From contig CABZAD010000002.1 of assembly GCA_902523665.1 (NCBI GenBank), forward strand, positions 6,263 to 70,262: a stretch of 64,000 nucleotides of DNA, written 5' to 3'. A program made the position numbers and the translations under genes. Positions within the stretch are counted from its first letter, which is position 1. Each line of letters begins with the position of its first letter. The notes beneath the pieces were generated by a model. It ran no database searches. It had not been told where the DNA came from and saw nothing but the letters and a program-made list of their open reading frames with translations. The stretch is from an uncultured Bacteroidota bacterium. GTDB lineage: Bacteria; Bacteroidota; Bacteroidia; Flavobacteriales; Flavobacteriaceae. This document shows, one piece after another, positions 1 through 8,981 of this stretch.

Positions 1-192
1 CTATTTAATGTCTATGCATTAAAAACTTTATCACCAACAACAGTTGGTTCGTTTATTTATCTTCAGCCAATAATTACAATAATTTTTGCTTTAATTATTG
101 GTAGTGATACACTAGATTCAACCAAAATTTTTTCGTGTATCCTGGTATTTGTTGGAGTATACTTAGTCTCACTTAAGAATAAGAATGGCTAA
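1..192 (+). CDS. EamA/DMT-family transporter, C-terminal fragment (5' end outside window)
   Basis: Frame +1 is open from the window edge to TAA at 190-192. The hydrophobic helices (GSFIYLQPIITIIFALIIG, ILVFVGVYLVS) resemble the last EamA repeat. Confidence 0.5.
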   Translation, partial: LFNVYALKTLSPTTVGSFIYLQPIITIIFALIIGSDTLDSTKIFSCILVFVGVYLVSLKNKNG

Positions 193-245: not shown

Positions 246-253
246 TAAATTTG
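246..253 (+). promoter_or_regulatory. Candidate Bacteroidota -7 promoter box (TAAATTTG)
   Basis: Exact TAnnTTTG match 16 nt upstream of the ATG at 270. Confidence 0.35.
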
Positions 254-269
254 AAAAAAATCAATTCCT

Positions 270-767
270 ATGAGAACTATATTTATTTTGTTTTTATCAA
301 TTTTACTCTTTTCATGTAACAACTCTAATGAAACTAAAGAAAAGTTTACATATGAAAGAGTTAAAGAGGATACATCGTCTGTTCAAACGAACATGATATC
401 TAATAACATAGTATTGAATTCAAATGATCAAATGAAATTTGATAAAAAAGTTATTCGAGTAAATTCTAATCAAAAAGTCACTCTCAAGCTAAATCATACA
501 GGAAAATTTCCTGCTATCTCTATGGGTCACAATTTTGTGTTAATTAAAAAAGGTGTTGATATTAATGAATACGCATTAAGAGCAGCCGGAGCAAGAAATA
601 CCGAATACATTCCTGAGGGTGGAAATGAAATTGCCTACACAAAGATGTTGGGCGGAGGTGAGACTGATACAATAACATTTGACGCACCTGATCCAGGTAC
701 TTACGTGTTTGTGTGTACATTTCCTGGTCATTATCAATTGATGATGGGGGAATTTATAGTAATCTAA
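270..767 (+). CDS. Azurin-like type-1 copper protein (cupredoxin), lipoprotein
   Basis: Lipoprotein-type signal (ILLFSC). Azurin ligand pattern MGHNFVL ... CTFPGHYQLM (Cys-x4-His-x3-Met, with the same CTFPGH core as azurin). Confidence 0.8.
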   Translation: MRTIFILFLSILLFSCNNSNETKEKFTYERVKEDTSSVQTNMISNNIVLNSNDQMKFDKKVIRVNSNQKVTLKLNHTGKFPAISMGHNFVLIKKGVDINEYALRAAGARNTEYIPEGGNEIAYTKMLGGGETDTITFDAPDPGTYVFVCTFPGHYQLMMGEFIVI

Positions 768-1333
768 GTTGGGACACTTCCTTGAATACCAAATTCATTT
801 AAATCTGCACATCCATCGTATTTTCCAGGAACAGGTCTATAGTTTAATATATTATACATAACATATTCATTTACCCTATACGAACGTACAGTAAGATTTC
901 TTATATTTTCTAAATAACTCGAAATGAATTTTTCATTTTCATTTTCAAAGTCGCTCTTATCTAGATATTTTGAAAGATATTGACTAAAAATTTCTGTATT
1001 CAAATTATCACTATTTGTTTCTTTTTTTACTAATGAAAGAAATTTGTTTAAATCTTTTAATACAATTTCTTTATCATTTTTATTTAAAATAGCATTTAAA
1101 TAGGAATCTGTAAACCTAACAATTTTTAAAGATATTGCTCCAGGTGTATCCGTTTCAGGTATTATTGATTCCATTATTAATTCTAGGTTTGACAATTGAT
1201 AATCATTAAAAAATTTTGGTGTCCAGGTCGAATCTGAACTCTGACATCCTTGAATTATTGATACAACAGAGCTTGATAGTGTAATTGTACCAAATGATAA
1301 TCCAATATTTTTAATTGCTTTCCTTCTGTCCAT
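764..1333 (-). CDS. Gluconate 2-dehydrogenase subunit-3-like small subunit with Tat signal
   Basis: N-terminus MDRRKAIKNIGLSFG is a twin-arginine motif. The start overlaps the stop of the GMC gene (TAATG), matching the usual partner arrangement of periplasmic GMC flavoproteins. Confidence 0.7.
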   Translation of the reverse strand: MDRRKAIKNIGLSFGTITLSSSVVSIIQGCQSSDSTWTPKFFNDYQLSNLELIMESIIPETDTPGAISLKIVRFTDSYLNAILNKNDKEIVLKDLNKFLSLVKKETNSDNLNTEIFSQYLSKYLDKSDFENENEKFISSYLENIRNLTVRSYRVNEYVMYNILNYRPVPGKYDGCADLNEFGIQGSVPT

Positions 1334-3033
1334 TAAATGTTCATTTTTTTTAACTCACTTACGGCATGGCTTACAGCTCTCGCTGTAAGTGCCATATAGG
1401 TAATAGATGGGTTTTGATTTCCACCAGATGTCATACAAGATCCATCTGTAACGTAAACATTTTTTACTGAATGTAACTGATTATTAGAGTTTAAGACTGA
1501 TGTTTTTGGGTCCCTTCCCATTCTAGCTGTTCCCATCTCATGAATTCCGTGACCAAAATTATAACTATCAATTCCATCATATGCATAAACTCCTTTGAAT
1601 CCTGATCTTTCAAGCATTTCTTGAGCTTGATTCATCATATCTTTTCTCATTTCATATTCATTATTACCTAATTTAGCATCAAATGTAACTGTTGGAAGAT
1701 TCCATTTATCTTTTTTAGAATAATCTAAGTATATCCTGTTATTGTGATTTGGAAGAATTTCACCAAAACCACTCAAACTTGCACCCCATTTTCCAGGTTG
1801 AGATATTAATTTTTTAAATTGTGGCCCAAAGGATGACATCTCTTTTACTGAATCAATTGAATTCAAACCAATGCCACCACCGCCTTGATACCCATAACCC
1901 CTTACAAAATTTTTCATTTTTGTTTTTTTATTTATGTTTCTAAACCTTGGGACAAAAATTCCACCGGGTCTTCGACCATATTCAGTTTTATCAGAAAAGT
2001 CGTCTAAATATCCTCCTGCTCCAATTATAAAATGATGATCCATAAGATTATGACCTAGCTCTCCGGAATCATTTCCCATACCATTTGGAAATCTATTTGA
2101 CTTAGATTGTAATAAAATTGATGAAGAGGGAATAGTAGATGCACAAACAAAAATTACTTTAGAAAAAAATTCATAGGTTAAATTTGTTTCTGCATCAATT
2201 ACCTTAACACCAGTTGCTCTTTTCTCATTTTCATCATAAATTATCTCGTATACTATTGAGTGAGGTCTCAGAGTCATATTACCCGTAGCCTCAGCTGCAG
2301 GTAATGTAGAGGAATTACTACTAAAGTATGCACCGTAAGGACACCCTCTTCTACATAAATTTCTATTCTGACATGTAACACGGCCAAGGCCAGGTTTAGT
2401 GCCTTCTGTGATATGAGCAACTCTGGCAGAGGTTAATATCCTGTCATTGTAATTCTCATATATCTTTTCTTTGAGATATTTTTCTGCACAATTTAGATCC
2501 AGCGGTTTCAAAAATTTACCATCAGGGAAGTGTGATAAACCCAGTTTTTCCCCACTAACTCCAATATATTCCTCAACATAATCATACCATGGAGAAATAT
2601 CTTTATATCTAATTGGCCAGTCAACCCCAAAACCATCATTTATGTTTGCTTCGAAATCAAGGTCACTAAGTCTGTATGTTTGCCTTCCCCACATTAGTGA
2701 TCTTCCTCCAACATGATATCCCCTAATCCAATTAAATGGCTTTTCTTCATTATAAGGATGATCATTATCATTTACCCAAAAATGTTTAGTCGATTCTGTA
2801 CATTGACCTGTCCTAGTTTGTTTTGGATGGTCCTTATATAGTTGTTGAGTCTTTGTATTGCCTGCTTCAAATTCCCAAGGATGCATGTTCATGGTTGGGT
2901 AATCTTCAATGTGCCTTACCATTCTGCCTCTTTCTAATACAAGTGTCTTTAATCCTTTTTCAGTGAGTTCTTTAGCCGCCCAACCACCACTTATACCAGT
3001 TCCAATAACTATAGCATCAAATTTATTTTCCAT
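1333..3033 (-). CDS. GMC-family FAD oxidoreductase (sugar/glycoside dehydrogenase large subunit)
   Basis: N-terminal FAD fold DAIVIGTGISGGWAAKEL. 566 aa. C-terminal GMC motifs (HEMGTARMG, VTDGS). No signal peptide of its own. Confidence 0.85.
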   Translation of the reverse strand: MENKFDAIVIGTGISGGWAAKELTEKGLKTLVLERGRMVRHIEDYPTMNMHPWEFEAGNTKTQQLYKDHPKQTRTGQCTESTKHFWVNDNDHPYNEEKPFNWIRGYHVGGRSLMWGRQTYRLSDLDFEANINDGFGVDWPIRYKDISPWYDYVEEYIGVSGEKLGLSHFPDGKFLKPLDLNCAEKYLKEKIYENYNDRILTSARVAHITEGTKPGLGRVTCQNRNLCRRGCPYGAYFSSNSSTLPAAEATGNMTLRPHSIVYEIIYDENEKRATGVKVIDAETNLTYEFFSKVIFVCASTIPSSSILLQSKSNRFPNGMGNDSGELGHNLMDHHFIIGAGGYLDDFSDKTEYGRRPGGIFVPRFRNINKKTKMKNFVRGYGYQGGGGIGLNSIDSVKEMSSFGPQFKKLISQPGKWGASLSGFGEILPNHNNRIYLDYSKKDKWNLPTVTFDAKLGNNEYEMRKDMMNQAQEMLERSGFKGVYAYDGIDSYNFGHGIHEMGTARMGRDPKTSVLNSNNQLHSVKNVYVTDGSCMTSGGNQNPSITYMALTARAVSHAVSELKKMNI

Positions 3034-3130
3034 TAAACCTAATTAGAAACCAATTCTAATTTAACATTAAATATTTTAAATCATAATTAATTATTTAAAT
3101 TTATATTTATAGTATATAAAACCATTTAAT

Positions 3131-4084
3131 ATGAAACGTAAAGAATTTATCAAATTAGCTTCAACTAGTGCACTTAGTTTATCCTCATTAGGTCACCTAT
3201 CTTTCAATTTATTTAGAGAACCTTTTTTTAAACTTTCTCTTGCTCAATGGTCCTTCAATAAAAGTATTAGATATGGATCAATGTCACCGTATAGTTTTGC
3301 AAAAGTTGCTAAAGATCTAGGTTTTGGTGGCTTAGAATATGTTAATCAATTGTACATGGGTATTATGGATACATCAGGTGGTGATAAAATTACATCAGTA
3401 AAGTTTTGGGCTAAAGAAAATAGTAAGTTAGCAAATGAGAATGGGATTGAAAATGTATTAATTATGATTGATAGTGAAGGAGACTTAGCTGATGAAAATA
3501 GAAATAGAAGAAACCAATCAATTGATAATCACAAATTATGGGTAGATGCAGCTAACGAATCTGGGTGTAAAAGTATTAGAGTAAATCTACATGGTACAAA
3601 TAATAAAAATAAATGGAAAGAGTATTCTATGGAAAGTCTTACTAAGCTTGCAAGTTATGCTCAAAGCTTAAATATTAATGTTATTGTTGAAAACCATGGT
3701 CAACTATCATCCAATATTCCAGTTTTAATGGAGGTTATAAATAGTGTAAACATGAAAAATTGTGGAACACTTCCTGATTTTGGAAATTTTTGTATGGTTT
3801 CAGGTTATGGTAATATTTTTGGTGGTGAATGTCCAGAAATTTATGATTTATACAAAGGTGTTGAGGAAATGATGCCTAAAGCATATGCAGTAAGTGCCAA
3901 GTCGAATGATTTTGACAGTAATGGAAATGAAAAGACAATTGATTATGAAAAAATGCTTAGAATAGTTAAAAATTTTGGTTATAACGGGTTCATAGGTGTT
4001 GAATATGAGGGAAGTAGACTTTCAGAAATTGAAGGAATTAAGGCAACCCGAGATTTATTAATTAAAATTGGTCAATCAATATAA
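3131..4084 (+). CDS. Xylose-isomerase-like TIM-barrel protein (sugar phosphate isomerase/epimerase family), probably exported
   Basis: 317 aa with an N-terminal signal-like segment MKRKEFIKLASTSALSLSS. Family-typical stretches are IRVNLHG and VIVENHG. Confidence 0.75.
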   Translation: MKRKEFIKLASTSALSLSSLGHLSFNLFREPFFKLSLAQWSFNKSIRYGSMSPYSFAKVAKDLGFGGLEYVNQLYMGIMDTSGGDKITSVKFWAKENSKLANENGIENVLIMIDSEGDLADENRNRRNQSIDNHKLWVDAANESGCKSIRVNLHGTNNKNKWKEYSMESLTKLASYAQSLNINVIVENHGQLSSNIPVLMEVINSVNMKNCGTLPDFGNFCMVSGYGNIFGGECPEIYDLYKGVEEMMPKAYAVSAKSNDFDSNGNEKTIDYEKMLRIVKNFGYNGFIGVEYEGSRLSEIEGIKATRDLLIKIGQSI

Positions 4085-4090
4085 CAGAGA

Positions 4091-5302
4091 ATGAATAAGT
4101 CAATAAATATTAGATTAAGTATAATGATGTTTCTGGAATTTTTTATATGGGGATGTTGGTTTGTTACAATGGGGACGTTTCTTTCCCAATCTTTCAATTC
4201 TTCTGGAGCACAGATTGGTCTTGCATATGAGACTCAATCTTGGGGAGCAATAATTGCTCCATTTATTATTGGACTTATAGCTGACAGGTACTTTGATGCA
4301 GAAAAGATTCTTGCATTAATTCATATTATTGGTGGTGGTCTTTTATTCATGTGTTCGATAGCCATTGGGTTTGAAAGTTTTTTCCCTTATATACTCATAT
4401 ATATGATACTTTATATGCCAACTTTAGCGCTGGTAAACTCCATTTCTTTTAGACAAATGTCTGATCCATCAAAAGAGTTCCCTAAAATTAGGGTTTGGGG
4501 TACAATTGGTTGGGTTGTAGCAGGTTTAGTAATAAGTTATGGTGTTGGTTGGGAAGCAAGCCAAACACTTGAATATACTTTCTACTTAGCTGCTATTGTT
4601 TCAGTAATTCTTGGTGTTTTCAGCTTTACATTGCCTAAGACTCCCCCTAAAGGAAAGAATTCTTCTAGCCCAAGTTTAAAAGAAATTCTTGGCCTTGATG
4701 CTTTAAAATTACTTAATGACTCGAAATACTTAATATTTTTTATATCATCAATTTTAATTTCAATTCCTTTGTCATTTTATTATGCAGATGCAAATTTATT
4801 CTTAAATGAACTTGGTATGGCTAATGCTGCGGGTGTTATGACTTTGGGTCAGATTTCTGAGGCTCTATTCATATTGTTACTTCCTGTTTTCTTAAAAAGA
4901 TATGGTATTAAAACTACTCTTGCAGTAGGTATGTTTGCTTGGGCATTAAGATATGTGCTTTTTGCTTTTGGAGATACAGGATCTAATATTTGGATGCTCA
5001 TTTTTGGAATAATCTTACATGGTGTTTGTTATGACTTTTTCTTTGTTTCAGGTCAAATCTATACTGACTTTAAAGCTGGAGAAAAATATAAAAGCGCTGC
5101 GCAGGGTCTAATAACTCTTGCAGTTTATGGAATAGGTATGTTAATTGGATTTAGACTTGCTGGAAGAGTAACAGATATCTATGCAATAGACGGTGGGCAC
5201 AATTGGTCCGAAATATGGACAATACCAGCGATTTTTGCATTTGTAGTATTCGTATTATTCATAGTAATATATAAAAACGAAAAAATAGAAATTGAAAAGT
5301 AA
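4091..5302 (+). CDS. MFS transporter, nucleoside:H+ symporter (NupG/XapB-like) family
   Basis: 403 aa and about 12 hydrophobic segments. The N-terminus IRLSIMMFLEFFIWGCWFVTMG is typical of the NupG-like family. Confidence 0.75.
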   Translation: MNKSINIRLSIMMFLEFFIWGCWFVTMGTFLSQSFNSSGAQIGLAYETQSWGAIIAPFIIGLIADRYFDAEKILALIHIIGGGLLFMCSIAIGFESFFPYILIYMILYMPTLALVNSISFRQMSDPSKEFPKIRVWGTIGWVVAGLVISYGVGWEASQTLEYTFYLAAIVSVILGVFSFTLPKTPPKGKNSSSPSLKEILGLDALKLLNDSKYLIFFISSILISIPLSFYYADANLFLNELGMANAAGVMTLGQISEALFILLLPVFLKRYGIKTTLAVGMFAWALRYVLFAFGDTGSNIWMLIFGIILHGVCYDFFFVSGQIYTDFKAGEKYKSAAQGLITLAVYGIGMLIGFRLAGRVTDIYAIDGGHNWSEIWTIPAIFAFVVFVLFIVIYKNEKIEIEK

Positions 5303-6428
5303 AATTAGATTAGGAATTCTTGGTGGCGGTGGAGATTCTCTAATTGGGATTGTTCACAGAATTGCTTCATCTATGCACGACAAATACTCTATAATTGGTG
5401 GTGTTTTTAATCCAGATTATTCTGAAAATCTAAAATTTGCAAAAGAGATTGGCCTTGATGAATCACGAGTTTATGAAGACTATGACAAAATGATTCAAGA
5501 AGAGTTAAAATTAGACAAAAGTCAAAGAATGCAAGTTGTCTCAATATTGACCCCCAACTTTCTTCACTATCCTATGGCTAAAAAGCTTCTTGAAAATAAT
5601 TTTAATGTAATTTGTGAAAAGCCTATGACAACTACTTATGAAGAGGCTCTCAATTTAGAAAGAATTTATAAATCCAAAAAATTAACTTTTGCTGTCACTT
5701 ATACTTACACTGGGTACCCAATGATTAGACAAATGAAGGAAATGATAAAAAATGGTGTAATTGGAAATATTCAAAGAGTAGATCTTCAATACTATCAGGG
5801 TTGGATTAATCCTATTATTCATGATAGTGTGAGAAGATCTGAAACATGGAGACTTCAACCTGATATGTCGGGAATAAGTTGTTGTATTGGTGATATTGGC
5901 ACTCATGCCTTTGACATGTTAGAATATGTAACCGGAATGGAAGTACAAGAACTCTTGTCTGATTTAAATTATGTTTATGATGATAATACAATGGATGTAG
6001 ATGGGACAATTTTAATTCGATTTTCAGATAAAATAAAAGGAGTCATTAGAGCTAGTCAGATAGCTACAGGTGAAGAGAATTGTTTTACAGTTGCAATATA
6101 TGGAAGAAAAGGTGGGTTAAAATGGCAACAAGAAAATCCAAATTATCTTAATCATTTAAGTGATTCAAAGCCTCTTCAGGTTCTTAAACCTGGTCATAAT
6201 TACAATTCTAATTTTTCAAAAATTTCAGCTAAATTACCGCCAGGACATCCAGAGGGTATGTTTGACTCCATGGCTAATATATATAATGGTGTAGCAAGGG
6301 AAATTCGAGGTGAAAAGGAATTTGATGGAGAGTTTCCTTCACTAAATGATGGTCTGAGGGGAATGTTATTTATAGAAAAAGCTGTTGAGTCTCATCAAAA
6401 AGGCAACAAATGGGTAAAATTAAATTAA
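5292..6428 (+). CDS. Gfo/Idh/MocA-family NAD(P)-dependent oxidoreductase
   Basis: Rossmann N-terminus IRLGILGGGGDSLIG and EKP motif (VICEKPMT). TTG start at 5292 overlaps the end of the transporter gene by 11 nt. Confidence 0.85.
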   Translation: MKSKIRLGILGGGGDSLIGIVHRIASSMHDKYSIIGGVFNPDYSENLKFAKEIGLDESRVYEDYDKMIQEELKLDKSQRMQVVSILTPNFLHYPMAKKLLENNFNVICEKPMTTTYEEALNLERIYKSKKLTFAVTYTYTGYPMIRQMKEMIKNGVIGNIQRVDLQYYQGWINPIIHDSVRRSETWRLQPDMSGISCCIGDIGTHAFDMLEYVTGMEVQELLSDLNYVYDDNTMDVDGTILIRFSDKIKGVIRASQIATGEENCFTVAIYGRKGGLKWQQENPNYLNHLSDSKPLQVLKPGHNYNSNFSKISAKLPPGHPEGMFDSMANIYNGVAREIRGEKEFDGEFPSLNDGLRGMLFIEKAVESHQKGNKWVKLN

Positions 6429-6429
6429 A

Positions 6430-7482
6430 ATGAAGACTATAAAAGGACCTGCAGTATTTCTTGCTCAATTTGTAGATAAATCTGAACCATTTAATTCTCT
6501 CGATGGAATATGTAAATGGGCATCTGAATTAGGATATAAGGGTATTCAAATTCCAACATGGGAGAGTTCATTAATTGATTTAGATAAGGCATCTGAGAGC
6601 CAAGATTATTGTGATGAATTGTCTGAAAAAGTTAGATCATATGGCCTGGAGATAACTGAACTATCTACTCATCTTCAAGGCCAGCTTGTAGCAGTGCATC
6701 CTGCATATGATTTGATGTTTGATAATTTTGCACCTGATAATCTAAAAAAAAATCCAAGAGAAAGAACAAAGTGGGCGGTTGAGACAGTTAAAAAAGCTGC
6801 AATTGCTAGTAGGCGTCTTGGCTTAAAATCTCATGCAACTTTTTCTGGAGCCCTTCTATGGCACACATGGCACCCATGGCCTCAGGCTCCCATGGGATTA
6901 GTTGAAATGGGTTTTAAGGAATTGGCAAAAAGATGGCTCCCAATTTTAAATGTATTTGATGAAAACGGAGTTGATGTTTGTTATGAAATACACCCAGGAG
7001 AAGATCTTCATGATGGTATAACATTTGAACGTTTTCTTAAGGCTACAAATAATCATAAGAGGGTAAATATATTATACGATCCAAGTCATTTTATACTTCA
7101 GCAGCTAGACTACATAACATATATTGATCATTATCATGAATTTATAAAGTCTTTTCATGTAAAAGATGCTGAATTTAATCCTACAGGTAAGAAAGGAGCT
7201 TTTGGAGGTTATTTAGATTGGGCTGATAGAGCTGGAAGGTATAGGTCTCTTGGTGACGGTCAGATTGATTTTAAAACTATTTTCTCAAAATTAACCCAGT
7301 ATGGATGTGATGTTTGGGCAGTTTTGGAATGGGAGTGTTGTATCAAAAGTCCTGAACAGGGAGCAATCGAAGGTGCAAAAATAATTCAAGATTTAATTAT
7401 TAATTGTACCGATAAAAAATTCGATGATTTTGCAGGAGGTAAAACAAATGATGAAGATTTAAAAAACATTTTAAATATTTAA
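6430..7482 (+). CDS. Xylose-isomerase-like TIM-barrel protein (sugar phosphate isomerase/epimerase family), cytoplasmic
   Basis: 350 aa with no signal peptide. Starts 2 nt after the Gfo/Idh/MocA stop. Typical stretches are CYEIHPGEDLHD and FHVKD. Confidence 0.8.
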   Translation: MKTIKGPAVFLAQFVDKSEPFNSLDGICKWASELGYKGIQIPTWESSLIDLDKASESQDYCDELSEKVRSYGLEITELSTHLQGQLVAVHPAYDLMFDNFAPDNLKKNPRERTKWAVETVKKAAIASRRLGLKSHATFSGALLWHTWHPWPQAPMGLVEMGFKELAKRWLPILNVFDENGVDVCYEIHPGEDLHDGITFERFLKATNNHKRVNILYDPSHFILQQLDYITYIDHYHEFIKSFHVKDAEFNPTGKKGAFGGYLDWADRAGRYRSLGDGQIDFKTIFSKLTQYGCDVWAVLEWECCIKSPEQGAIEGAKIIQDLIINCTDKKFDDFAGGKTNDEDLKNILNI

Positions 7483-7484
7483 AT

Positions 7485-8264
7485 ATGATAAGGCTTATTA
7501 TTTTTCTTTTTATTTCAAGTTCGTTAATTTCTCAGGAGTCAGATTGGAAATATCTTTTTGACGGTAGCTCTTTAGAAGGATGGCATCAATACAAAAGTGA
7601 TAAAATGAGTGAAGCTTGGTATATAGAAGATGGTGAGCTCGTTTTAAATTCAAGTAATGATAATATTAGTAGAGGTAATGATATATTATATGAAAAAGAA
7701 TTTTCCAATTTTGAACTATCCTTGGAGTGGAAAATACCAAGAGGTGGGAATAGTGGTGTATTTTTCAATGTAGTTGAAATTGATGAAGTAGATGCACCAT
7801 GGAAAACAGGTCCAGAAATACAAATTTTAGATAATAACTATTTCTTTGATACAAATCAAAAAGATTTATTAGATTATTTAAAAAAATTTAATGGTAAAAA
7901 TGAAAAGCTAAGCAATTACCATAAGGCTCCTGCTCTATATGGTCTTAAGCCTATAGGAGAAATTAAATATAATCCTCACGGAGAGTGGAACCACTTGGTT
8001 TTGAAAGTAGATAACAAGAAGAATGAAGGATCAATTACTTTGAATGGTAAATATGTATATTCTTTTCCACTATATGGTGAAGAATGGGATAAATTGATAT
8101 CTCAATCAAAATTTAATTCTGATGATTATTTTTCTGGATTAAGCCCTGATCATATTTTTTACACTTATGCTCCATATTTTGGTAAATTTCAATCTGGTAA
8201 GATAGGTTTACAAGATCATGGTTGGAGTGTAAGGTTTAAAAATATAAAAATTAAAGAATTATAA
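7485..8264 (+). CDS. DUF1080 (3-keto-disaccharide hydrolase family) protein, secreted
   Basis: Signal peptide, then DWKYLFDGSSLEGWHQY ... GNSGVFF ... GPEIQILDN ... GKIGLQDHG ... FKNIKIKEL, the characteristic DUF1080 layout. Confidence 0.85.
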   Translation: MIRLIIFLFISSSLISQESDWKYLFDGSSLEGWHQYKSDKMSEAWYIEDGELVLNSSNDNISRGNDILYEKEFSNFELSLEWKIPRGGNSGVFFNVVEIDEVDAPWKTGPEIQILDNNYFFDTNQKDLLDYLKKFNGKNEKLSNYHKAPALYGLKPIGEIKYNPHGEWNHLVLKVDNKKNEGSITLNGKYVYSFPLYGEEWDKLISQSKFNSDDYFSGLSPDHIFYTYAPYFGKFQSGKIGLQDHGWSVRFKNIKIKEL

Positions 8265-8981
8265 ATGAGATATTTACTAATATTGTTTATTACATTTTTT
8301 TCTCCAATTTTTTTTGAAAATGTTCAATCTGATTGGAAATACATATTTGATGGAAAAAGTTTTGATGGATGGCATCAATATAATAGTGATGAAATTGGGA
8401 GTCAATGGTCTATAGATAACGGTGAATTAATCTTTACAAATAATAAAGAGAAAAAACAGGATCTTGTAACAGAACAAGAATTTGAAAACTTTGAACTTTC
8501 AATTGAGTGGAATATTTCAAAAGGAGGAAATAGTGGGATTTTTTATGGAGTAAAAGAGTTCGCTGAACTGGATGAGGCATACAAATCAGGGCCAGAGATT
8601 CAAGTATTAGATAATGAAAATTTTTATACTGCTACTAAACTTCATAGAAGCCCATCGTTATATGATCTAGTTGGGCCTGATAAAAATAATGTGATGGTTA
8701 ATCCTCATGGAGAGTGGAATCATTTATTGCTCAAAATTGATCACAAAAAAAATTTAGGTACAGTAGTAATGAATGGGCATTTTGCTTTTTCATATCCACT
8801 ATCTGGGCCAGAATGGGATAAGCTTGTTTCAAAATCTAAATTTAGATTTAAAGATTACTATGTCAATAGAGGTACAAATAATGAATTTCTAGCATTTGGA
8901 TCATTTAAATCTGGTAAAATTGGTCTTCAGGACCATGGAAGCAATGTCAAATTTAGAAATATAAAAATTAGAGAATTATAA
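8265..8981 (+). CDS. DUF1080 (3-keto-disaccharide hydrolase family) protein, secreted; tandem paralogue
   Basis: Same motif series as the preceding gene (DWKYIFDGKSFDGWHQY, GNSGIFY, GPEIQVLDN, GKIGLQDHG, FRNIKIREL). Starts the base after its stop. Confidence 0.85.
   Translation: MRYLLILFITFFSPIFFENVQSDWKYIFDGKSFDGWHQYNSDEIGSQWSIDNGELIFTNNKEKKQDLVTEQEFENFELSIEWNISKGGNSGIFYGVKEFAELDEAYKSGPEIQVLDNENFYTATKLHRSPSLYDLVGPDKNNVMVNPHGEWNHLLLKIDHKKNLGTVVMNGHFAFSYPLSGPEWDKLVSKSKFRFKDYYVNRGTNNEFLAFGSFKSGKIGLQDHGSNVKFRNIKIREL

Follow-up and report, generated by a model that had tools for sequence, protein, structure and literature searches.

An azurin-like cupredoxin as candidate electron carrier beside a glycoside-oxidation gene cluster in an uncultured marine flavobacterium

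Gene content and predicted pathway

The locus described here lies at the left end of a 64,000-nucleotide stretch of DNA from an uncultured flavobacterium (contig CABZAD010000002.1, G000:C2:6263-70262), which as a whole is referred to below as the window. It consists of nine adjacent genes that appear to encode an oxidative glycoside-processing pathway, and the first of these specifies an azurin-like cupredoxin. The source assembly is 1.13 Mb in 52 contigs and is 81% complete, and the named relatives of the source genome (Candidatus Marisimplicoccus, MED-G11 and surface-ocean single-cell genomes) are all uncultured open-ocean flavobacteria. Domains were assigned by Pfam and NCBIfam profile searches of all nine proteins, and solved relatives were taken from a PDB sequence search. 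A first-pass annotation, made from the DNA letters, had already named the domains of nine adjacent genes; all nine open reading frames (ORFs) are found at the coordinates in Table 1, and both sets of profile searches agree with the names. The cupredoxin gene and the gene for the small dehydrogenase subunit converge with a 4-nt overlap, as that annotation had described. A possible promoter element (TAAATTTG), which follows the Bacteroidota -7 consensus TAnnTTTG, precedes the cupredoxin gene, and we give it low weight.

Table 1 Coordinates of features at the left end of the window
Feature	Position	Strand	Evidence or remark
EamA/DMT transporter gene, 3' end	1..190	+	left edge of conserved frame, outside the pathway
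TAAATTTG, possible Bacteroidota -7 promoter element (TAnnTTTG)	246..253	+	16 nt 5' of cupredoxin start codon
Azurin-like cupredoxin lipoprotein, 165 aa	270..767	+	PF00127, E 1.6e-14
Small Tat 'hitch-hiker' subunit of dehydrogenase, 189 aa	764..1333	-	PF13618 (Gluconate_2-dh3), E 5e-13
GMC flavoprotein, putative catalytic subunit, 566 aa	1333..3033	-	GMC_oxred_N/C; no signal peptide
TIM1, exported xylose-isomerase-like TIM barrel (AP_endonuc_2), 317 aa	3131..4084	+	PF01261, E 1e-21
NupG-type MFS permease (Nuc_H_symport), 403 aa	4091..5302	+	PF03825, E 1e-122
Gfo/Idh/MocA oxidoreductase, predicted cytoplasmic, 378 aa	5292..6428	+	PF01408 and PF22725
TIM2 (AP_endonuc_2 TIM barrel), predicted cytoplasmic hydratase homologue, 350 aa	6430..7482	+	match to 8ro4
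Secreted DUF1080/3keto-disac_hyd protein, 259 aa	7485..8264	+	PF06439, E 2e-39; signal peptide
Second secreted DUF1080 protein, 238 aa	8265..8981	+	PF06439, E 6e-41; signal peptide

The two genes on the minus strand are predicted to encode a two-subunit dehydrogenase. The small subunit begins MDRRKAIK, with a twin-arginine motif that is conserved in its orthologues, and in almost every phylum locus that was examined its gene sits beside that of the GMC protein; together with the lack of a signal peptide in the GMC protein, this bears out the earlier description of a small subunit with a twin-arginine translocation (Tat) signal and a signal-less flavoprotein. The GMC protein matches the catalytic subunits of fructose dehydrogenase (FDH; 7w2j) and glucose dehydrogenase (GDH; 6a2u) at E ~1e-31. 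In the alignment, its segment CQNRNLCRRGCPYGA falls on CCGNNNCMPICPIGA of 7w2j/6a2u and keeps the 3Fe-4S cysteines as C-x5-C-x3-C, at the positions of Cys212, Cys218 and Cys222, and a strict form of this motif (C-x5-C-x3-C-P-x-G-A) is present in 14 of 23 GMC ORFs of the family. In the Burkholderia enzyme these three cysteines hold a surface 3Fe-4S cluster that passes electrons to a separate haem subunit, and Cys213 forms only a dispensable disulfide (PMC6719666). We regard the GMC protein as a probable glycoside 3-dehydrogenase with flavin adenine dinucleotide (FAD) and a surface 3Fe-4S cluster. Compared with the Burkholderia gamma-alpha-beta complex (BcGDH, 6a2u) and Gluconobacter FDH (7w2j), it has a homologous catalytic subunit, the three cluster cysteines and the Tat hitch-hiker subunit in common. 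It differs in that the position of Cys213, the inter-subunit disulfide cysteine, is Gln, that the His105 site of FAD attachment is probably not kept (by our own reading of the alignment), that no membrane-bound three-haem subunit lies in the cluster or was found in the genome, and that a small lipoprotein, separate from the complex, is proposed as its acceptor.

Two more GMC paralogues are found in the genome, with identities of 31% and 46-49% (G000:C1:84510-86210(-), C17:10-1188(+) and C23:2-298(-), one of them being split across contig ends), as well as extra TIM1-like (C15) and DUF1080 (C14, C18) genes, a large share for 1.13 Mb. Many large-genome relatives (L040, L041, L044, L094 and others) carry two tandem pairs of GMC and small-subunit genes in the cluster, frequently separated from TIM1 by an AraC-type regulator; the window's cluster has one pair and lacks a regulator.

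The remaining genes point to the route that follows oxidation. TIM2 matches the 2-hydroxy-3-keto-glucal hydratase 8ro4 over residues 1-348 of 350 (E 3.3e-156), and its gene is the most strongly conserved in the cluster, with 61-85% identity across family and class. TIM1 matches 4ovx (E 7e-68) and, weakly, C-glycoside lyases, and the Agrobacterium eliminase 8bvk is not among its PDB matches at E values up to 1e-3. Its N-terminus reads MKRKEF in the window and MKRRDF in many orthologues, and we consider it a candidate periplasmic 3-keto-glycoside eliminase; in place of an 8bvk-type eliminase, cleavage may fall to TIM1, as a member of another subfamily, or to the DUF1080 proteins. The latter are paralogues (45% identity) that score 136 and 141 bits against PF06439 (cut-off 26.8), a family whose name gives only a putative activity for these two proteins. 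The permease scores 396 bits against TIGR00889, under the cut-off of 446. The Gfo protein matches 3v5n (E 7e-88) and, like TIM2, has no signal peptide. By profile score it does not belong to the glycoside 3-dehydrogenase systems of the Bacteroides BT2157-2160 type: for the Gfo dehydrogenase equivalogs NF058561 and NF058563 it reaches 34 and 19 bits, where the cut-offs are 750 and 650. Taken together, signal peptides across the cluster give a consistent assignment of compartments.

By homology, the cluster reads as a flavobacterial version of the known oxidation-elimination-hydration-reduction route of Agrobacterium (PMC10628242). The full-length match of TIM2 to 8ro4 and the FDH/GDH-type cysteines kept in the GMC protein uphold the oxidative glycoside-processing role proposed by the first-pass annotation. 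Like the operon of Agrobacterium tumefaciens and Rhizobium (GlycDH with its TAT protein, AtOGE, AtHYD and Gfo; PMC10628242, 8ro4, 8bvk), the window combines a GMC-type dehydrogenase and a small Tat protein with two TIM barrels of the 'sugar phosphate isomerase' kind and a Gfo enzyme, and would follow the same reaction logic; TIM2 is homologous to the solved hydratase over almost its whole length. Unlike that operon, it has a TIM1 with no sequence match to the eliminase 8bvk, and it adds the two DUF1080 proteins and the NupG-type permease. In such a two-compartment pathway of oxidative glycoside cleavage, the GMC protein would be exported by Tat with its small subunit and would oxidise a glycoside at C3 in the periplasm, with electrons leaving FAD through the surface 3Fe-4S cluster. 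The exported TIM1, the two DUF1080 proteins, or both, would then split the 3-keto-glycoside, the permease would import the sugar (keto-sugar) product, and in the cytoplasm TIM2 would hydrate it and the Gfo enzyme, a proposed 3-keto-sugar reductase, would reduce it. The terms 'cytochrome c', 'electron acceptor' and 'azurin' do not appear in the text of the Agrobacterium study, so the physiological acceptor of two-subunit periplasmic glycoside 3-dehydrogenases is not addressed there (PMC10628242).

The cupredoxin and alternative haem carriers

The first-pass annotation described the cupredoxin as a lipoprotein with an azurin copper site, and both features can be read in its sequence: a lipoprotein signal (LLFSC; MRTIFILFLSILLFSC) is followed by ~30 linker residues and then by an azurin domain with the ligands GHN...CTFPGHYQLM. 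The type-1 copper ligands (GHN and C-x4-H-x3-M) are kept in 41/41 orthologues, and 38 of these have a lipoprotein signal. Its best solved relatives are the lipid-modified azurins (Laz) of Neisseria (2n0m/3ay2, E 2e-22), with which the copper ligands align, and it scores 95.7 bits (E 2.4e-27) against the azurin equivalog TIGR02695, under the 105.1 cut-off, which makes it azurin-like. The N-terminal disulfide of azurin (Cys3-Cys26 in the Pseudomonas protein) is absent, as the mature cupredoxin contains the ligand Cys alone, and the Laz Cys in 'KACKEF' faces a non-Cys position in the alignment. From these comparisons we classify the protein as a Laz-like lipid-anchored azurin. Fold, copper ligands, lipoprotein signal and flexible tether are all shared with Laz, and so would be the proposed role of a shuttle in the periplasm (PMC6277709). 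It differs from Laz in its score below the azurin cut-off, in its lack of the disulfide cysteines, and in its tether, which is short, rich in K and E and, in the wider family, common to a cytochrome c. Exposure on the cell surface is unlikely, since the Bacteroidota lipoprotein export signal, C-X-K-(D/E)2, requires a Lys at position +3, and surface lipoproteins have none at +4 (PMC5080379); the orthologue tether C-G-G-K-E-E is off-register, with Lys at +4, and the export motif is absent from the window's own cupredoxin.

The first-pass annotation is right that the cluster has no cytochrome c and the cupredoxin as its only carrier, and the 6.2 kb upstream of the window has no cytochrome c either. 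The only c-type cytochrome domains found in the whole 81%-complete assembly are those of ActA and ActE in the alternative complex III (ACIII) operon on contig C8, and the cupredoxin is the only small carrier found. ActA and ActE apart, no membrane-bound multihaem cytochrome c subunit as in the BcGDH/FDH complexes was seen in any of these regions. The ACIII operon runs directly into coxB-coxA, which encode the sole haem-copper oxidase found in the genome (aa3); CoxB has no cytochrome domain, and no cbb3 oxidase, which would be an alternative client, was found. A search of the genome for NosZ gave no matches, but the controls gave none either, which makes this negative a weak one. A cytochrome c gene in the 6.2 kb to the left of the window, which by the first-pass annotation would have told against its proposal, was considered and rejected, as this stretch holds unrelated genes (EamA, a Cys/Met pyridoxal-phosphate (PLP) enzyme, metallophosphoesterase, HflX, MoxR and DUF58). 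The EamA gene matches PF00892 (E 2e-37) where it is complete (locus L008 5564-6454), and the order EamA, carrier, small-subunit gene recurs across the window's genus.

The comparisons covered four sets of genomes or loci: a family survey of 121 genera, with one genome per genus and orthologues of cupredoxin and GMC scored; a class-wide comparison of 29 loci anchored on TIM2; a survey of the window's genus; and a phylum survey of 401 genomes. In 16 of the 29 class-wide loci, from five Bacteroidia families, a lipoprotein cytochrome of the c-551/c-552 family lies directly 3' of TIM2 on the same strand, and one more locus is ambiguous (examples are L184:872-1297(-), L181:3689-4087(+) and L196-L223). 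Among them is a genus with large genomes, g122, that belongs to the same family as the window, and a cluster-encoded small carrier is thus common for this pathway elsewhere. The window's genome, its genus and 60 loci of the marine family all lack the c551-like cytochrome. In part, therefore, the first-pass annotation was right to expect a cytochrome c in such a cluster: the cytochrome that is usual (16-17/29 loci) is a small c551-like lipoprotein, and not a multihaem membrane subunit.

A second haem carrier, a tethered lipoprotein cytochrome c, has orthologues in ~88 of the 121 genera, and among solved structures it comes closest to 3cp5/6cuk and ACIII subunit A. In at least 10 genera it occupies the conserved frame that holds the cupredoxin and the cluster in other genera. 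In genome G118 (1.9 Mb, with the same frame of EamA and Cys/Met-PLP genes), the slot beside the small-subunit gene is filled by a 160-aa lipoprotein monohaem cytochrome c, whose gene converges on the small-subunit gene with a 6-nt overlap; in G034 and G002 the genes for cupredoxin and cytochrome c are neighbours. The two non-homologous carriers also share an N-terminal module (ISCGGKEEKKKEGFSYQKK in a cytochrome, FSCGGKEEKKKEGFSYEKK in a cupredoxin) with a tether, CGGKEEKKKEGFSYEK, that is specific to them. Among 705 neighbourhood ORFs the tether motif occurs only in the cupredoxin cluster and in one singleton ORF, and in the window's genome only in the cupredoxin. Signal, lipobox and tether (C-G-G-K-E-E-K-K-K-E-G-F-S-Y-E-K) are near-identical between the cupredoxin at L038:9631-10137 and the cytochrome c at L128:6061-6564 (positions 270-400 in the window). 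Such a shared module could serve in docking or sorting, or could be left over from a domain swap.

Within the genus, 18 species with the small subunit were surveyed for the slot between EamA and the small-subunit gene. The cupredoxin stands alone in 8; in 7 it is followed, after ~15-30 nt, by an intact lipoprotein cytochrome c with a GTG start that overlaps the small-subunit gene; and in 2 a cytochrome lies at a contig end. Genus-wide, the cupredoxin is present in 30/34 genomes and the cytochrome in 16, and in the window's subclade (four genomes with cupredoxins 90-96% identical) the cupredoxin is present and the lipoprotein cytochrome absent. In one species of the genus (L134:216-723, G529:C7) the cupredoxin frame is in two pieces, a pseudogene or an assembly error, and the adjacent lipoprotein cytochrome c is intact. 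At least one of the two carriers is found in 61 of 62 GMC-bearing genera, compared with 42/59 genera without GMC (Fisher p 1.5e-5; here and below genera are counted as independent and kinship is ignored). A strict family-wide complementarity of the cupredoxin and the lipoprotein cytochrome c was also considered and not found (odds ratio 0.76, p 0.54), with many genera having both.

Copper and haem carriers are known as interchangeable pairs in azurin and c551 of Pseudomonas, pseudoazurin and c550 of Paracoccus, and plastocyanin and c6 of cyanobacteria and algae. The carriers described here resemble such pairs in sharing a genomic slot and a tether, and the cluster cytochrome missing from the window is of the c551 family. 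They differ in that seven species have both genes in tandem, apparently as one transcription unit, and in that the proposed donor is a flavin/3Fe-4S sugar dehydrogenase. Auracyanin and c551 work with ACIII in Roseiflexus (PMC10873879), and the window's genome likewise has ACIII.

Linkage of cupredoxin and dehydrogenase

Across the 121 genera, cupredoxin orthologues occur in 49 and GMC orthologues in 62: both are present in 34, the cupredoxin only in 15, GMC only in 28 and neither in 44 (odds ratio 3.6, p 0.0015). Of the 34 genera with both, 23 have the cupredoxin gene no more than 10 kb from the GMC pair, always convergently, and the genes between them are members of the cluster (DUF1080, TIM barrel and a Tat-exported Gfo). 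At least five different contexts are found upstream of these adjacent genes. A co-occurrence of the cupredoxin with the GMC pair, proposed as a check in the first-pass annotation, is thus seen in the 34 genera and the 23 linked loci, but the 15 and 28 genera with one partner only, and an adjacency restricted to one family, go the other way.

Several observations weigh against reading this linkage as a functional bond. The cupredoxin is found directly after ilvD-B-N-C-A and an aldehyde dehydrogenase gene (aldH), on the same strand, in 18/40 loci, 6 of which have no GMC nearby, so that it is equally syntenic with an unrelated ilv/aldH array as with the cluster. Because gene order in this family keeps unrelated genes together, linkage within the family is not decisive, and we rejected a conserved neighbourhood as decisive proof of a functional bond; the linkage could be due to nothing more than inherited gene order. 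The 15 genera with a cupredoxin and no GMC orthologue, and four cupredoxin-bearing family genomes without any GMC domain, indicate that the cupredoxin has other clients. The two genes are convergent and thus not co-transcribed, and in two species of the genus the slot is empty and the cupredoxin lies elsewhere in the genome. The tether and locus of the cupredoxin are shared with a cytochrome c that in seven genera heads a cluster of cytochrome c, a fasciclin-domain protein, NosZ, a 196-aa protein and NosD (L121:6052-12501, L124, L126, L127, L128), with a NosZ of the Sec-dependent type (TIGR04246, 933 bits). Outside the family, the GMC pair is within 10 kb in 0/20 cupredoxin loci, and in the phylum sample none of the ~45 out-of-family genomes with both genes has them adjacent. 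The sister families f4, f5, f7 and f12 have GMC in 38/48 genomes and the cupredoxin in 8/48, and in another class of the phylum the cupredoxin occurs widely, without GMC in its neighbourhood. From the lack of adjacency outside the family and the hosts without GMC, it follows that the cupredoxin is not a universal partner of the GMC family, and a dedicated partnership between the two is not supported. Finally, the assembly in which no small cytochrome was found is only 81% complete.

Three further observations concern the surroundings of the cupredoxin gene. In the window's own genome, the ilvDBNCA and aldehyde dehydrogenase array is on another contig (G000:C11:2812-11024), and the unit of cupredoxin and cluster sits in a conserved frame other than the ilv array. 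In the f4 locus L077:8993-10253, a DUF1080 gene is followed after 35 nt by a cupredoxin orthologue on the same strand, with the nearest GMC 81 kb away. Adjoining a standalone cupredoxin at L062:42-9536 and L052:10316-14157 are tandem pairs (three in L062) of a 630-aa protein with DUF1080 and PA14 domains and a 650-aa protein that combines a cupredoxin-like region with a c551-like cytochrome domain at its C-terminus; neither protein is named by a curated family.

Candidate acceptor and its rivals

Our preferred view of the cupredoxin is that of a general periplasmic shuttle of high potential, tethered to the membrane, and thereby the copper equivalent of the tethered cytochrome c. We lean somewhat towards a further step in this organism, in which electrons would pass from the GMC 3Fe-4S cluster to the cupredoxin and on to the aa3 oxidase, because the cupredoxin is the only small carrier found here, the pathway uses such a carrier elsewhere, and carrier genes abut the dehydrogenase genus-wide. 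The cupredoxin would most likely take electrons from GMC, and probably from ACIII as well, and pass them to the aa3 oxidase, filling here the job that the cluster-encoded c551-like cytochrome would have in other Bacteroidia. Gene content, homologies, motifs and comparative distributions are what the analysis shows; from these we infer which kind of substrate is used, which way the electrons flow and that they pass from flavoprotein to cupredoxin.

The strongest alternative, which we rate as rather unlikely but worth serious weight, is that the cupredoxin serves only as a general respiratory shuttle from ACIII to the aa3 oxidase (and to NosZ in other genera), much like Chloroflexi auracyanin or the membrane-anchored cytochrome c of Rhodothermus, and that GMC electrons go elsewhere, for example directly to the haems of ActA or ActE. 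Its place beside GMC would then be a matter of inherited gene order. The ilv synteny, which makes neighbourhood weak evidence, fits this explanation, as do the tether and locus held in common with a cytochrome c akin to 3cp5/6cuk and ACIII subunit A that heads nosZ clusters, the genera with a cupredoxin and no GMC, its retention in 30/34 genomes of the genus, and its spread in another class away from GMC. What it leaves unexplained is why a small cytochrome is so frequently encoded in the cluster elsewhere, where the electrons go here, and why a cytochrome fills the slot in G118 and tandem carriers abut the small-subunit gene in streamlined genomes. The two roles are compatible, and this alternative differs from the one we favour only by denying the GMC step.

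The GMC enzyme would need no protein acceptor at all if it were an oxidase that gives electrons to O2, like pyranose oxidase and the C-glycoside 3-oxidases. There is a weak C-terminal similarity of the GMC protein to pyranose oxidase (TIGR02462, 53 bits; 3bg7), and most marine-family clusters have no internal carrier gene, but its closest solved relatives are dehydrogenase complexes, it keeps the three 3Fe-4S cysteines, it is accompanied by a Tat hitch-hiker subunit in nearly every locus examined, and c551-like cytochromes are commonly encoded in the cluster elsewhere; we consider an oxidase improbable. Least probable is a cupredoxin that acts in copper buffering or stress defence, apart from both the cluster and respiration. 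Laz of Neisseria has been linked to copper and oxidative-stress tolerance, and there is no specific support for such a role here. The full type-1 copper site in every orthologue, the tether shared and the tandem unit formed with a cytochrome c, and the retention of the gene in most genus genomes of ~1.2 Mb all speak against it.

The pathway itself, azurins of the Laz type and the interchange of copper and haem carriers are already known. New here is the finding of three alternative carriers at one sugar-oxidation cluster, namely the c551-like cytochrome, the tethered class I cytochrome and the azurin-like cupredoxin, together with the proposal of a cupredoxin as candidate acceptor of a flavin/3Fe-4S dehydrogenase. 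No paper on such a link turned up in a literature search that combined azurin with either glucoside 3-dehydrogenase or flavobacteria. Because in Bacteroidia the genes of this pathway usually come with one for a small lipoprotein carrier, of one of the three kinds, the question of its acceptor can be tested with defined pairs of proteins. Should the cupredoxin not be the acceptor, the locus would be an ordinary member of a known pathway beside a general respiratory shuttle. If instead the favoured step from GMC to the cupredoxin is correct, it would document a cupredoxin accepting electrons from a 3Fe-4S FAD dehydrogenase, which would be relevant to bioelectrocatalysis. We tentatively suggest that in streamlined ocean flavobacteria the azurin-like lipoprotein has replaced both haem carriers and become the sole shuttle from GMC (and ACIII) to the aa3 oxidase, in an iron-sparing swap of copper for haem. 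Such a swap may be likened to that of plastocyanin for cytochrome c6 in phytoplankton, and it may have been eased by the shared module of signal and tether. Should the cupredoxin be the acceptor at work in ocean flavobacteria, which are abundant and starved of iron, some of the oxidation of marine glycans would depend on copper and not on haem iron.

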